From: a virus
IMG/VR virus record: IMGVR_UViG_3300008117_000025
Coordinates: 1-64,000 of that record
Strand: one strand, 5' to 3'
Length of the DNA: 64,000 bases
Part shown: in pieces, positions 15,575 to 52,650 of the stretch
Layout: each line of letters begins with the position of its first letter
Numbering within the stretch: position 1 is the stretch's first letter
Program-made: the position numbers and the translations under genes
The notes under the pieces: generated by a model
Database searches by the model: none
What the model was told of the DNA's origin: nothing
The model's input: only the letters and a program-made list of their open reading frames with translations

Positions 15575-15866
15575 GTAAATTGATGGGAATAACGATTACC
15601 CATAACCCCTGAACGGACCCCTTTTCACCCACTATCCACAAAGATGATCAGTCGATGTGTTGAGATAGGCTGGATTGTCTACCAGCGACGCCTGCGGAGA
15701 TCGTCATTGAATTTCTTCGGCGTATCCAGAGCACTGTTGGGTTGCGCATTCTACCCTTAGTGATGGTGGTTTTATCTCATCCGTCTGTAGTACCCAGCTC
15801 AATAGCTTTTCAGCTATATCACCAGTGCCTTAGCCCCTCTCAAGAGCTTATTCGGCCACAGTTTGT
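15575..15866 (-). ncRNA. Unidentified ~290-nt structured RNA candidate
   Basis: GC-rich, no credible ORF, TATATTTA box at 15872-15879, terminator downstream, several helices (see findings). Confidence 0.65.
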
Positions 15867-15886
15867 ATATATAAATATATTAAATT

Positions 15887-16285
15887 TGGTGGAGATGGTG
15901 GGATTCGAACCCACGTCTTACTAAGTACCTATAATACTAGCGTTTCACATGCTTAGATCTGAACAAGTCTGATCAGTAGGGCTGACCGTTATGGTCGTTT
16001 CCACCACCCTATTTTATGACTATAGGGAAAACTACGGCTCGCAATATGCGTCCGGATGCCGTCTCTATAGCGTACGACTCGCTGTTGTGTTCTGTTCCTA
16101 GGCTCTCTACCGCCCGATGCGGACTAGGCTGCTAAAGCGTAATCGGCGCCTACGAAAGACATCAAGTCTTCGAAGGTCATAGTTGACATTTCGTCAGTTA
16201 TTGTTTTGTAGCTTTTTAAGACGACACTACCGAACGTCTGCATGTAGTACTATCGATCGCAAAGCAATCAATACCAAACATCCCC
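15887..16285 (-). ncRNA. ssrA: tmRNA
   Basis: Acceptor GGGGAUG/CAUCUCC with G3:U70, encoded ACCA end, T-arm GTGGGTTCGAATCCCAC, tag ORF 16195-16124 DEMSTMTFEDLMSFVGADYALAA*. Confidence 0.95.
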
Positions 16286-16615: not shown

Positions 16616-16630
16616 GTCTATAACTATTAG

Positions 16631-16717
16631 TGCCCCCAGCGGGAATCGAACCCGCACTCGCTTTTTCGGCGAACAGGATTTTAAGTCCTGCGTGTCTACC
16701 TATTCCACCACAAGGGC
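16631..16717 (-). tRNA. tRNA-Leu(TAA)
   Basis: D-loop GGTGGAATAGGTAGACAC, anticodon arm CAGGA-CTTAAAA-TCCTG, long variable arm, T-arm GCGGGTTCGATTCCCGC; CCA not encoded. Confidence 0.93.
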
Positions 16718-16863
16718 AAGAGTGGGTCTATTCCCCACAGTCAGAAGAACTTGAAACTTACCTACGCACCAGTGAGGTATTCTTCGTGGTTGTTCACAGA
16801 GCTTGTTCAGCGTGCACCATTCCAAGTTGTCGTGCGTGTCAATTAAGACGTACTGTGTTCAGG

Positions 16864-17020
16864 CTGTAAGGGAAGGAGTCGAACCTTCACGCTGCGATTC
16901 AGTAATGGACAAAATAGCCGGCTTTGTGGTCAACCCATATCTATTTACCTATTTCGTTTTTCAGCGCCCACGAGACGAGTGGGGGTGTCTGCCAGACCTA
17001 GGTCATTTCACCACCTTACA
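16864..17020 (-). ncRNA. Aberrant tRNA-like RNA (157 nt)
   Basis: Perfect acceptor TGTAAGG/CCTTACA and T-arm GAAGG-TTCGACT-CCTTC; hairpin inserted in the D-loop, loop TCGTCTC, ~77-nt variable arm. Confidence 0.7.
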
Positions 17021-17021
17021 A

Positions 17022-17219
17022 TCATTGTTTTCTCTCTTTATATAACCTAATCCATGTCATTGAGACATCGACTGCCATTAAAACGGGAGCCATTACTAGA
17101 ATAGCTAGTGTTTCTAGGGCTGGAGTTGCATAGAGAGGATCGTTATTTTTCTTACTGTAACTATTATACATTTTATAGATACAATAAATAACTGATATTA
17201 TATAAATTGCTAAGATCAT
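17022..17219 (-). CDS. Small membrane protein
   Basis: Two hydrophobic segments. Confidence 0.65.
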   Translation of the reverse strand: MILAIYIISVIYCIYKMYNSYSKKNNDPLYATPALETLAILVMAPVLMAVDVSMTWIRLYKERKQ

Positions 17220-17735: not shown

Positions 17736-17760
17736 TAAATATACAACCTTATTTTGCCTA
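17736..17760 (-). promoter_or_regulatory. Promoter TAGGCA-N11-TATATTTA
   Basis: Variant of the repeated motif. Confidence 0.55.
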
Positions 17761-18360
17761 ATCCAAAAGACCTAATGCTTTCATATTCTCAAGATGAGCC
17801 TCATCTAAGTCCCACTCATGAGCCACTGCTTTAACCTCAGTATTGTCTTCAATATGGCGCACTTGATCTGGGGTAAGTGGGTCAGCAACAAGTAGAAAAT
17901 AATCGTTGTAACACAATAACTCAAGATTATCAAGAAGATAATTATTGCGGTTGCCATCTTTGAAATTTAATAATAGGGGTATTTTATAATCAGTTACTCT
18001 GCGTTCACAGAAGCCACAATGGTAACATTCTTCCTTTAAGTAACCTTCTTTTATTCCTTTAAATTTGATTTTTTCTGGGGTGAAGGATTCCCATCCTGTT
18101 CCGGTTTCAAATATGAGTTTAACATTTGGATCTCGCTTTCGGTTAGGGAGGAATTTTGGGATGCCTTTTCCACTTTGGTTTTTATGAGAGTCAAATAGAG
18201 TAGGCGAATGAGGGTCGGATTCATCTAGTCTAAATAATTTAGCATATGGTTTATAATGTTGATACGAGCAGCCTAAGTAACGAGCAGCAGCACGATTCGA
18301 TTTTGTAAATCGCATTGCGCGCAGAATGTCTTCTCTGCTAAATACTTTTGCTAAAGGCAT
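17758..18360 (-). CDS. HTH plus degenerate HNH-domain protein
   Basis: N-terminal SNRAAARYLGCSY helix pair; CYHCG...LLLNFKDGNRNNYLLDNLELLCYNDY matches the HNH scaffold but lacks the His residues. Confidence 0.65.
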   Translation of the reverse strand: MPLAKVFSREDILRAMRFTKSNRAAARYLGCSYQHYKPYAKLFRLDESDPHSPTLFDSHKNQSGKGIPKFLPNRKRDPNVKLIFETGTGWESFTPEKIKFKGIKEGYLKEECYHCGFCERRVTDYKIPLLLNFKDGNRNNYLLDNLELLCYNDYFLLVADPLTPDQVRHIEDNTEVKAVAHEWDLDEAHLENMKALGLLD

Positions 18361-37868: not shown

Positions 37869-39479
37869 TTACATTCCAAATTGTGACAAATCAACCTCAT
37901 CTTTCTTTTTCTCAGCTGGTTTATCATGGATAACACATTCTGTCATTAGGAGTGTAACCGCAGCTGCTGCTGCGTTTTCAAGTGCACAACGTACTACTTT
38001 AGTAGGATCGATAATACCTGATTTGAAAGCATCTACTGTTCTTTCCTCGTTGATGTCAGGAACAGCGTTTTTTTCTTTTAGCGCTTGGATCCACTCATAA
38101 TAGTCTTCACCAGCATTAGTTAGAATTTTTTGGAGGGGTTGGTTACATGCTTTAAATACAATTTGACCTCCCAATCCAAAATCACTGTTATCTCTATTTT
38201 TAATTACATTTTTAGCATTAAATAGAGCCATACCTGCACCTGGTAAGATACCCTCTTCAAGTGCTGCTTTAGTTGCTTGGAGAGCATCGTCAATGCGGTC
38301 TTTTCTTTCCTTCATTTCTACTTCAGTACCTCCACCTACATTGATAATAGCTACACCACCTACAATCTTAGCAAGGCGATCTTGTAAACGCTCGATTTCG
38401 TATGGTGAATTTGCTTGATCGATTTGAGCTTTTAATTCATCAATGCGAGCATCTATTTTCTCAGTTTCACCTTTACCATCAACAATTGTAGTAGTATCTT
38501 TACCTACAGTGATTGTTCTAGCACTACCTAACCAGGACATATTAAACTTATCCAGTTTCATTCCTTTTTGTGGTGAAACCAAAGTACCACCAGTTACAAT
38601 AGCAATATCTTCAAGGATAAGTGTTCTACGATCTCCAAAGTCAGGTGCTTTGACAGCTACCACTTTTAAAATACCTCTCATTTTATTTACAATGAGTGTT
38701 GAAAGTGCTTCACCATCAATATCTTCAGCTACAATCAATAACGACTTATTATCTGAGGAAATGCGTTCGAGGATAGGGAGGAGATCTTTTACAGCGCTAA
38801 TTCTACCATCAAACAATAAAATAGAGGCATCAGTAAGTACTGCTTGCATTGTATTATTATCAGTCACCATATAAGGTGATTTATAACCTCTATCAAACTG
38901 AAGACCTTCTACTACTTCAAGTGATGTTTCACCTGAACGAGATTCTTCCACTGTTACAATACCATCTCTTCCTACTTTATCAATTGCTGTAGCAACTAAT
39001 TCTCCAATTTCCTCATCCCCATTAGCTGAGAGTGTAGCAATTTGTTTAATTTGCTTTTCATCAGTGATATCTACAGATGATGCTCTCAATTCAGATACTA
39101 CATCCTTAACTGCTTCTTCAATACCACGTTTTACTTGAGTAACATTAACTGATGGTTTTGATGTTGCCTCAAGTGCTTGGTCAGCAACAGACCATGCTAG
39201 TAGAGTTGAAGTAGTGGTTCCATCACCTGCTTGATCAACTGTTTTTTGTGCTGCTTGTTTAATTACAGTTGCAGCCATGTTTTCAATTGGATCTTCTAAA
39301 GTAATGGTTTTAGCAACAGTAACACCATCTTTAGTTGATGCTACTTGTCCATGATCTTTTTCAATCAATACATTACGCCCAAAAGGACCCATTGTTACTG
39401 TTACAGCATCGTGTACTTTTTTAATACCGGCTTGTAGTTTTTCTTTCGCTTCACGATCAAATTTAATTATTTTACTCAT
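37869..39479 (-). CDS. groL: Chaperonin GroEL
   Basis: TKDGVTVA, GDGTTT, GLQFDRGY, KAPDFGDRR, IIDPTKV. Confidence 0.97.
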   Translation of the reverse strand: MSKIIKFDREAKEKLQAGIKKVHDAVTVTMGPFGRNVLIEKDHGQVASTKDGVTVAKTITLEDPIENMAATVIKQAAQKTVDQAGDGTTTSTLLAWSVADQALEATSKPSVNVTQVKRGIEEAVKDVVSELRASSVDITDEKQIKQIATLSANGDEEIGELVATAIDKVGRDGIVTVEESRSGETSLEVVEGLQFDRGYKSPYMVTDNNTMQAVLTDASILLFDGRISAVKDLLPILERISSDNKSLLIVAEDIDGEALSTLIVNKMRGILKVVAVKAPDFGDRRTLILEDIAIVTGGTLVSPQKGMKLDKFNMSWLGSARTITVGKDTTTIVDGKGETEKIDARIDELKAQIDQANSPYEIERLQDRLAKIVGGVAIINVGGGTEVEMKERKDRIDDALQATKAALEEGILPGAGMALFNAKNVIKNRDNSDFGLGGQIVFKACNQPLQKILTNAGEDYYEWIQALKEKNAVPDINEERTVDAFKSGIIDPTKVVRCALENAAAAAVTLLMTECVIHDKPAEKKKDEVDLSQFGM

Positions 39480-51447: not shown

Positions 51448-52650
51448 TTAACATCCACAAGGATTATTCCAAGTTCCACATTGTGAGTTGGGGTAATCAT
51501 TAAAATAATCACTATTTACTATATCTGCGGGTGGTTGAATAGGAGGAAGTATATTTTGTGTTGTTATAGAACCATATCTAACACAATCTGAAAGTGTATA
51601 TAGATATAATTGCCCCTCAGGTTCAAAAGTTGAATTTTCTGTTGTTATTAAACCATACTGTGTAGTTCCACTACAATCAACATATTTAAAAGATCCTGTT
51701 TCAGCTGCATATAATAATATATTTTGGAAACATCCATTAAATGCTTTATATACTATACAAGCTCCTGCACAATCTGGTGTAACTAAAGGACCAACTGCTG
51801 AGTCTCTTCTTGCTAAACAGTGTGCAACTGGAGTACAAGAGCCTAGATCAGTAATTACACCACTATCATTTACAACTAAACAATTAGTACCATCATAATA
51901 AGTACCAGTATCTGCTATTGTTGTTAAAGAAGAGTCTGTGTATAGGAAGCATCCAACTTCTAGATCGCAACAATCACTGTATATAGTAGGTGATAAAGCT
52001 TGAGTTGAATATGTTACTATAACAAGTCCATTTCCACCAACACCACCATTTCTTGTTGAAGAACCTAAATCAGTATTTGCTCCTCCTGATCCACCACCCC
52101 CAAAGCTAGCTCCTGGATTTCCATTATTTCCTGGGGTTACTCCATTTGCTCCTAATCCTCCATAAAAATTTGTTGCTGATCCTCCAACATTATTTACTGC
52201 ATTGCTTCCACTATTAGTAGAACCGGCACCTCCTCCTCCTCCACCAGACCCTGCATCTACTCCATTTCCTCCATTTCCACCTTTAAATATTATATCACCA
52301 ACACACCCTGCTGTACTACCAGAAGCTCCAGTAGCATATGCTGGCGTTGCTCCAGTAGCATTATTGCCATTTATCCCTCCTTTAGCATAAACTACATTAA
52401 TATTATCAAACCAAGAATCTCTATTACCCGCTCCACCTTGACCAACAGTAACTGTATATCCTTGTCCTGGGTTAACAGGATAATTCATTTTTTTAGCATA
52501 TGCACCTCCAGATCCACCACCACCACGACCTCCAAGGCGAGTAGAAAGTCCACCTGATCCCCCAGCTCCCCATGCTTCTATAGTTACATGATTAACATTG
52601 GCTGGTACTGTAAAGGTTCCATTTGTATAAAAAAATTCTTTTTGTCTCAT
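51448..52650 (-). CDS. Glycine-rich-domain fibre/adhesin-like protein with Cys-rich C-terminus
   Basis: TFTVPANV..VTIEAWGAGGSGG...GGGGSGGAY, VGQGG, GGNGLVIVTY. Confidence 0.8.
   Translation of the reverse strand: MRQKEFFYTNGTFTVPANVNHVTIEAWGAGGSGGLSTRLGGRGGGGSGGAYAKKMNYPVNPGQGYTVTVGQGGAGNRDSWFDNINVVYAKGGINGNNATGATPAYATGASGSTAGCVGDIIFKGGNGGNGVDAGSGGGGGGAGSTNSGSNAVNNVGGSATNFYGGLGANGVTPGNNGNPGASFGGGGSGGANTDLGSSTRNGGVGGNGLVIVTYSTQALSPTIYSDCCDLEVGCFLYTDSSLTTIADTGTYYDGTNCLVVNDSGVITDLGSCTPVAHCLARRDSAVGPLVTPDCAGACIVYKAFNGCFQNILLYAAETGSFKYVDCSGTTQYGLITTENSTFEPEGQLYLYTLSDCVRYGSITTQNILPPIQPPADIVNSDYFNDYPNSQCGTWNNPCGC

Follow-up and report, generated by a model that had tools for sequence, protein, structure and literature searches.

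A tRNA-like RNA with an aspartate-type anticodon and a giant variable arm, from a widespread uncatalogued family of Bacteroidota and their phages

The phage genome and its small-RNA cluster

The stretch of DNA analysed here (64,000 nucleotides; referred to as the window) comprises the first 64 kb of IMG/VR record IMGVR_UViG_3300008117_000025, a complete phage record of 182,846 bp with terminal repeats. The window is AT-rich (~31% G+C) and its genes are encoded on the minus strand. The closest proteins to those of this phage are found in Flavobacterium phage immuto (e.g. a glycosyltransferase with 60% identity), hence a Bacteroidota host is likely. Other features of the window comprise an HNH endonuclease-like gene (17758-18360, minus strand) located ~0.7 kb upstream of the small-RNA cluster, a phage-encoded GroEL-type chaperonin (37869-39479, minus strand), and a block of ~44-50% G+C within the ~31% G+C genome (45144-60078) that contains three giant minus-strand ORFs (2011, 1374 and 1084 aa), adjoined by a tail-fibre-assembly-like gene (51448-52650).

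In the whole 182,846-bp phage, tRNA-type genes are confined to a tmRNA, a tRNA-Leu(UAA) (ARAGORN) and the tRNA-like RNA described here, which lie together on the minus strand (Table 1). The tmRNA has an unusually long tag, DEMSTMTFEDLMSFVGADYALAA, which is identical in a related viral contig (L074, 3001-3396). Just 3' of the tmRNA (15662-15879, minus strand), the manA RNA motif gave a weak match (19.9 bits, E = 0.024; gathering score 55); according to a recent preprint (10.64898/2026.07.01.735769), cyanophage manA RNAs form RNA cages. A trailer, CCUGAACACAGU (16852-16863, minus strand), abuts the discriminator nucleotide of the tRNA-like RNA; it is common to the related contigs L045 and L111, and a variant is found in L074 and L030, which suggests a conserved processing or termination signal. 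Two mechanically called ORFs (16630-16869, 79 aa; 16803-17045, 80 aa; both plus strand) cover the tRNA-Leu and the tRNA-like RNA in antisense; the regional ORFs lie on the other strand, and these two almost certainly are not genes.

The first-pass annotation had described a 157-nt tRNA mimic with a perfect acceptor stem, a canonical T arm, a class II D arm with a hairpin inserted in its loop, a non-canonical anticodon loop and a giant variable arm; every point of this anatomy holds on the minus strand, read from 17020 to 16864 (Table 1). The core also contains U8, and the seven-nucleotide anticodon loop is composed around C33, G34U35C36, U37 and C38. The sequence of the D arm is closest, and nearly equal, to the D arms of phage tRNA-Leu. 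Standard tools do not recognize the 157-nt RNA: no call was made by ARAGORN, with introns allowed or not, or with Rfam 15 at gathering or at E<=10.

Table 1. Positions of the small-RNA genes in the window and of the elements of the tRNA-like RNA.
Feature	Position	Strand	Details	Basis
tRNA-like RNA, whole, 157 nt	16864..17020	-	5' end 17020; discriminator G 16864	sequence, homologues, covariation, model R1
Acceptor 5' strand UGUAAGG	17014..17020	-	pairs with CCUUACA 16865-16871; perfect 7 bp	
D arm	16985..17011	-	stem GUG 17009-17011 with CAC 16985-16987 (3 bp); G18G19 16992-16993	
D-loop insert GACCUAGGUC	16995..17004	-	perfect 10-nt palindrome; optional within the family	
Anticodon arm	16967..16983	-	stem CCCAC/GUGGG, 5 bp; loop UCGUCUC 16972-16978; GUC 16974-16976	
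Variable region, 78 nt	16889..16966	-	closed by CGCUG/CAGCG	
Variable-arm helix P1	16962-16966 with 16890-16894	-	3/5 pairs changed on both sides	
Variable-arm internal loop	16949-16955 opposite 16896-16901	-	GAAAUAG opposite UGAAUC	
Variable-arm helix P2	16938-16948 with 16902-16911	-	7/10 pairs changed on both sides	
Unpaired motif AUAUGGGUUGACCAC, top of arm	16926..16940	-	invariant in 49 viral sequences	
Arm tip AGCCGGCU	16916..16923	-	perfect 8-nt palindrome	
T arm GAAGG-UUCGACU-CCUUC	16872..16888	-	4/5 pairs covary; T loop conserved	
tRNA-Leu(UAA)	16630..16717	-	146 nt downstream of the tRNA-like RNA	ARAGORN, Rfam
tmRNA	15887..16285	-		ARAGORN, Rfam

Homologues in phages and Bacteroidota chromosomes

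Viral homologues were retrieved with an exact search for 24 nt from the T arm and acceptor, which yielded 12 viral contigs, and with the arm motif ATATGGG..GACCAC, which yielded many more. In total, the RNA was found on ~60 IMG/VR contigs, from which 49 distinct sequences (141-171 nt) remained after filtering. The folding energy of the 157-nt RNA is ordinary (z = -0.78), so thermodynamics alone proves nothing, and the case for a non-chance structure rests on these homologues. Across the 49 distinct viral sequences 95.9% of the cells are paired, in comparison to 77% in column shuffles and 40-52% when the partners are slid by 1-3 columns; changes on both sides were observed in 31 of the 39 pairs, and none of 500 shuffles matched any of the observed measures. 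Covariation extends to every helix, including P1 and P2 of the giant arm: all seven acceptor pairs are formed and six of them covary, the anticodon stem covaries in 5/5 pairs, and the D stem occurs in the covarying variants GUG/CAC, GCG/CGC and ACG/CGU. Since pairing and compensatory changes lie beyond all shuffles, the 157-nt RNA is, on this comparative evidence, a selected structured RNA and neither a decayed nor an intron-bearing tRNA; the random decay envisaged for a pseudogene is refuted by the same covariation. The giant arm itself is, as judged from the alignment, a conserved folded domain.

The positions that are invariant in all 49 viral sequences comprise G34, U35, C36, G2-C71 and G73; U1-A72 is present in 48 of them, C38 and U37 are each conserved to at least 90%, and invariance or near-invariance extends to U8, G18G19 and the T loop. 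Position 33 is C or U among the phage copies. The unpaired motifs of the arm, i.e. GAAAUAG, AUAUGGG(G)U.GACCAC, UGU and UGAAUC, are also invariant or nearly so. For a conceivable pairing between the codon-like GAC in the arm and the GUC of the anticodon loop, both partners are invariant, and the short bacterial copies (see below) are devoid of the arm motif.

Both extra elements of the phage copies carry self-complementary tips. The 12 distinct arm-tip cores of the viral sequences differ from one another, yet each is a perfect palindrome of 8-10 nt (for example GCUUGCAAGC, AGCCGGCU, GCAUGCAUGC, GCCGGCCGGC, GGCGGCCGCC, UCCUGCAGGA, GCGUACGC and AGCGCGCU), and about 17 of the 23 distinct short D inserts are self-complementary, over up to 20 nt. 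For a plain hairpin, self-complementarity of the central four nucleotides is expected in 1/16 of cases; here, at least five different central tetramers occur and all are self-complementary. The tip AGCCGGCU forms no stable hairpin (0.0 kcal/mol) in comparison to an intermolecular duplex of -16.9 kcal/mol, and the D insert GACCUAGGUC forms a hairpin of -2.1 kcal/mol in comparison to a duplex of -19.6 kcal/mol. With tip duplexes that are far more stable than the hairpins, pairing between phage copies is a reasonable reading, and these modelled energies suggest that the phage copies may pair with each other through their tips. At the level of the whole molecule, the gain from homodimer cofolding was no better than for shuffled sequences. 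Palindromic tips are missing from most bacterial copies, and some phage copies (on contigs L061 and L080) are without the D insert or the tip; the latter excludes self-pairing as the core function of the family.

In related phages, a tRNA-Ser usually precedes the RNA by 4-5 nt within arrays that hold up to 25 tRNAs, and a tmRNA is often found nearby; the sub-lineage that includes the window has the order RNA, tRNA-Leu(UAA), tmRNA. Several of the arrays that contain the RNA carry an ordinary tRNA-Asp(GUC) as well, hence the RNA is not the decoding tRNA-Asp of those phages. Complete phage carriers are 183-321 kb in size. No copy was found among 50,697 records of isolated phages, where a cyanophage tRNA-Asn gave the only match, over 28 nt of the T arm and acceptor; Flavobacterium phage immuto, the nearest cultured relative, and Microcystis phage Mel-JY01 are both without the RNA. 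A motif scan of genome contigs returned mostly chance matches and six true ones, all on short MAG contigs, which are probably phage-derived.

The copies in bacteria were found by searches with the covariance model R1 and not by the motif scan; on the scale of this model, ordinary tRNAs score ~30-50 bits. All of the five Bacteroidota genomes that were reached through their loci contain R1 matches of 74-148 bits, and in an even sample of Bacteroidota genomes, 13 of 151 are carriers, with copies of 74-117 bits. Some copies are located on megabase contigs, and some genomes contain two to three copies in tandem. In two further Bacteroidota assemblies, a copy beside the regulator gene described below is cut by the contig end (L295, 1-96; L296, 2127-2283); contigs end inside the RNA gene as if tandem copies break assemblies, hence the carrier counts are lower bounds. 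The tRNA body is almost unchanged in the bacterial copies, with UGU..ACAG ends, the loop UUGUCUC and G73; they have U33, and nearly all have U37. The bacterial arms vary in length (30 to ~140 nt) and in sequence, and in most of the long ones GGGUUGACCAC is retained, together with a related internal loop in which GGAUAAAC faces GCUAAC. In one bacterial genome (G140) the loop is CUUUCUC, with UUC (Glu type) and not GUC at the anticodon position; its two tandem copies (109-110 nt; L273, 1279-1388 and 1501-1609) are adjoined by an AsnC-like regulator gene. Several upstream regions contain, as read from the sequence, TAnnTTTG motifs (Bacteroidota-type promoter). With its phage and chromosomal copies taken together, the RNA truly belongs to a widespread, uncatalogued family of tRNA-like RNAs of Bacteroidota and their phages.

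In 11 of 17 bacterial loci, and in 13 of 19 with the two truncated ones, the RNA has a divergently oriented gene for a regulator of 155-160 aa upstream; no regulator gene is nearby in the remaining six. The regulator is a member of the Lrp/AsnC family (Pfam). The NCBIfam AsnC equivalog model scored 172 bits and the next model 72 bits, with the curated cut-off of 227 not reached; the best PDB match was to E. coli AsnC (2CG4, 129 bits), followed by a next match of 84 bits and by Lrp with 44 bits. By these similarity scores, the regulator resembles true AsnC far more than it does other Lrp/AsnC members. Apart from the regulator, nothing is conserved in the neighbourhoods of the bacterial loci. 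A regulator of AsnC type is encoded somewhere in the genome of all 13 carriers, and its orthologues in RNA-free genomes have no common neighbour. A replacement of asnA by the RNA at an asnC-asnA locus was considered and is not supported: asnA is rare (4/151) and not located beside this regulator. In the carriers examined, asnA is absent (0/5). Rejected was the proposal that carriers lack any asparagine synthetase, as AsnB-type genes are present in 5/5.

Aspartate/asparagine identity and candidate functions

The strong determinants of aspartate identity are G73, G34, U35, C36 and C38, plus G2-C71 (PMC9976931), and all of them are invariant or, for C38, at least 90% conserved in the 49 sequences of the RNA family. 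The first pair departs from tRNA-Asp: G1-C72 is strictly conserved in bacterial tRNA-Asp (PMC9976931), whereas the RNA has U1-A72 (48/49). The same U1-A72 and G73 end is found in the host tRNA-Asn of four carrier genomes. For the bacterial amidotransferase GatCAB, U1-A72 promotes amidation, G1-C72 and a supernumerary D-loop nucleotide (20A) block the enzyme on tRNA-Asp, and the tail of GatB approaches the variable loop (PMC1635274, PMC2811023). As read from these positions, the RNA joins an aspartate-type anticodon to an asparagine-type acceptor end.

The best explanation, to which we assign a probability of roughly 0.4, is that the gene is functional and yields a tRNA-derived RNA without a decoding role, which would be read by its aspartate identity and tied to the aspartate/asparagine economy. 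The RNA would be co-transcribed with the tRNA cluster, excised by the tRNA-processing enzymes (RNase P, 3' trimming) and completed by CCA addition. Proteins would recognize it through the invariant aspartate set (G34, U35, C36, C38, G73 and G2-C71), and the likeliest reader would be the host aspartyl-tRNA synthetase (AspRS), which would load it with aspartate; normal decoding would be prevented by U37, by C33 and by the giant arm. This agrees with the first-pass annotation, which had thought the mimic unlikely to decode normally, in that U37 is found in nearly all copies and position 33 of the phage copies is C or U. The phage copies may in addition pair with one another through the self-complementary tips of both extra arms. 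We favour a role in the aspartate/asparagine economy because the U1-A72/G73 end is identical to that of host tRNA-Asn, a mark for GatCAB, and because the chromosomal neighbour is of AsnC type; possibly, the RNA serves as a carrier for the conversion of aspartate to asparagine away from the ribosome. The combination suggests a charging with aspartate and subsequent amidation to asparagine outside translation, under the control of an asparagine sensor.

Several observations count against this role. U1-A72 stands in place of the G1-C72 pair that bacterial AspRS normally encounters. With its class II D arm, closest to that of tRNA-Leu, the RNA has extra D-loop nucleotides in addition to the hairpin, which may impede GatCAB, given the block by a supernumerary nucleotide on tRNA-Asp; also, the 78-nt arm could clash with the tail of GatB. 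Also to be set against it are the AsnB-type synthetases of the carriers (5/5), the asnA loci of the phylum that are not paired with this regulator, the UUC of one bacterial genome and the six bacterial loci without a regulator gene nearby. The gatB gene is present in 13/13 carriers but also in 126 of the 151 sampled Bacteroidota, so that its presence in carriers says little. Both AsnRS and GlnRS are encoded in all five carriers examined (5/5 each), hence translation in these carriers has no obvious need for GatCAB. In four RNA-bearing phages, no AspRS or AsnRS gene was found (0/4), and an asparagine synthase gene was found in one (1/4).

Another explanation, doubtful but conceivable, is that of a decoy or titrator, as had also been proposed in the first-pass annotation: the aspartate-type loop and the acceptor end would occupy a tRNA-Asp-handling protein, and the RNA itself would not be used. 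Anticodon nucleases and further tRNA-targeting defences are proposed as targets, as are AspRS and tRNA-guanine transglycosylase, with a role in counter-defence or as a regulator. The invariance of G34U35C36 next to non-canonical positions 33 and 37 is as expected for a look-alike without the need to decode; the RNA is carried beside genuine tRNAs in phage arrays, even in a phage with a single tRNA, and some D-loop inserts present a second UGUCUC loop. However, a decoy leaves unexplained the chromosomal Bacteroidota copies beside an AsnC-type regulator, the conserved G73, G2-C71 and U1-A72 at the far end of the molecule, and the invariant motifs of the 78-nt arm, and defence genes were not seen adjoining the bacterial copies.

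An unlikely alternative is a self-assembling scaffold, in which the tips would join phage copies into dimers, rings or chains, and the tRNA body would provide processing and stability. It would account for the palindromes in all 12 arm-tip cores and in ~17/23 short D inserts with their many different sequences, and for the 8-nt tip of the window, which has no hairpin and a duplex energy of -16.9 kcal/mol. There is precedent in homo-oligomeric natural RNAs (PMC12286853) and, for RNAs of <200 nt, in a preprint (10.64898/2026.07.01.735769). The absence of palindromic tips from most bacterial copies, the copies L061 and L080 without D insert or tip, and a whole-molecule cofold gain not above that of shuffles argue against it, and the invariant anticodon and acceptor identity are left unexplained.

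Rather more speculative is an elaborated form of the favoured reading, i.e. an AsnC-controlled carrier that combines the identity elements with self-pairing: AspRS, guided by GUC, C38 and G73, would load aspartate, GatCAB, guided by U1-A72, would amidate it off the ribosome, U37 and the giant arm would block decoding, and the phage copies would form multimeric, transamidosome-like scaffolds that boost the supply of asparagine. If true, such scaffolds would raise the asparagine supply for the AT-rich, asparagine-hungry phage proteome.

A specialised decoding tRNA, charged with aspartate by AspRS, or with serine by SerRS via the long arm, and reading GAC/GAU in a special context, is improbable. 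The cloverleaf core is complete, with an invariant GUC and a 7-nt loop, the bacterial copies have U33, and tRNA-Ser likewise has G73 and a long arm (PMC9976931). Against this stand the pyrimidine U37 that is conserved across the family, the C33 in the present copy, a branched 78-nt arm well beyond those of known elongator tRNAs, the ordinary tRNA-Asp that is also present in phages and hosts, and the rejection of the RNA by tRNA finders.

Least probable is that the gene is a tRNA gene in decay or one split by an intron or mobile insertion, for which the missing calls of the standard tools and a forced ARAGORN call with relaxed intron settings ('tRNA-Ser(act)' with an 82-nt intron) could be quoted, and which is contradicted by the compensatory changes in every helix, those of the insert included, by the invariant unpaired motifs within the insert, by conservation across phages of 180-320 kb and bacteria, and by the absence of any match to Rfam intron families at E<=10. 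The ARAGORN call appeared only at a lowered threshold, and the stem that it requires does not covary; furthermore, the insert occupies the place of the variable loop, and U37 would persist after its removal. The intron offered as an option in the first-pass annotation is not supported, and its other option of a tRNA-processed carrier for a cargo RNA found no specific support.

Comparison with known RNAs

The family is widespread and strongly constrained, and its members are found both in large phages from the environment and on chromosomes of Bacteroidota. No published description of it was found in the searchable literature, and it is absent from Rfam. A catalogue of viral candidate RNAs gives DNAVirus_1850 in 27 viral loci, one of them overlapping a tRNA-Asp call (PMC10690425); DNAVirus_1850 might be the same family. 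The RNA presents an unusual, readable combination of an aspartate anticodon, an asparagine-type end, a class II body, a 78-nt domain, self-complementary tips and, in bacteria, an AsnC-type neighbour, which makes charging by AspRS, amidation by GatCAB, RNA-RNA assembly and asparagine control testable hypotheses. For annotation, such genes are overlooked by standard tRNA finders, and spurious ORFs are called across them.

Among decoding tRNAs, the class II tRNAs (Leu, Ser, Tyr; RF00005) are alike in the 7-bp acceptor, the 5-bp T arm and the 3-bp D stem, in an extra arm that departs at the variable-loop position, and in the location in tRNA arrays. They differ in the arm, which is ~10-21 nt and a single hairpin in class II tRNAs, whereas the 78-nt arm of the present RNA is made up of two helices with an internal loop and a tip, and in the D-loop hairpin, U37, C33, GUC anticodon, G73 and U1-A72 found here. 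Compared with a canonical elongator tRNA (RF00005), all four arms are present and covary, together with U8, G18G19 and the T loop, whereas U33 and a purine at position 37 are lacking, as is detection by tRNA models. With tRNA-Asp, the RNA shares G34U35C36, C38, G73 and G2-C71, and it differs in U1-A72, the pyrimidine at position 37 and the class II D loop; with tRNA-Asn as a substrate of GatCAB, it shares U1-A72 and G73, whereas its D arm is of class II, with a 3-bp stem and a larger loop with a hairpin.

To our knowledge, tRNA-shaped RNAs that do not decode are few, and comprise tmRNA, the Y-RNA-like YrlA, the stable RNAs of phage T4 and viral tRNA-like ends. The T4 species 1 and 2 RNAs (rnaC, rnaD) are alike in their size (~120-140 nt), their position at the edge of a tRNA cluster, the T arm, the acceptor-like end and the unassigned function, whereas rnaC has no comparable D arm or anticodon arm. 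Homology to rnaC was rejected, with an R1 score of 16.3 bits, below that of ordinary T4 tRNAs, and nothing in common beyond the T arm. The tmRNA and YrlA (PMC4201824) also carry a tRNA-like module outside of ordinary decoding and have phage-borne members, as a functional analogy only; tmRNA has no anticodon arm and encodes a tag, and YrlA has its tRNA-like part inside a Ro-binding stem (PMC4201824). The Rfam models of tmRNA and YrlA returned nothing on the RNA beyond a 7-bit match to the T arm. The ROOL, GOLLD and OLE RNAs and the manA motif have no sequence or model similarity to the RNA, whose self-pairing is read from its palindromic tips; the likeness is in their setting and behaviour, several of them being phage-associated near tRNA genes, and in RNA-RNA assembly.
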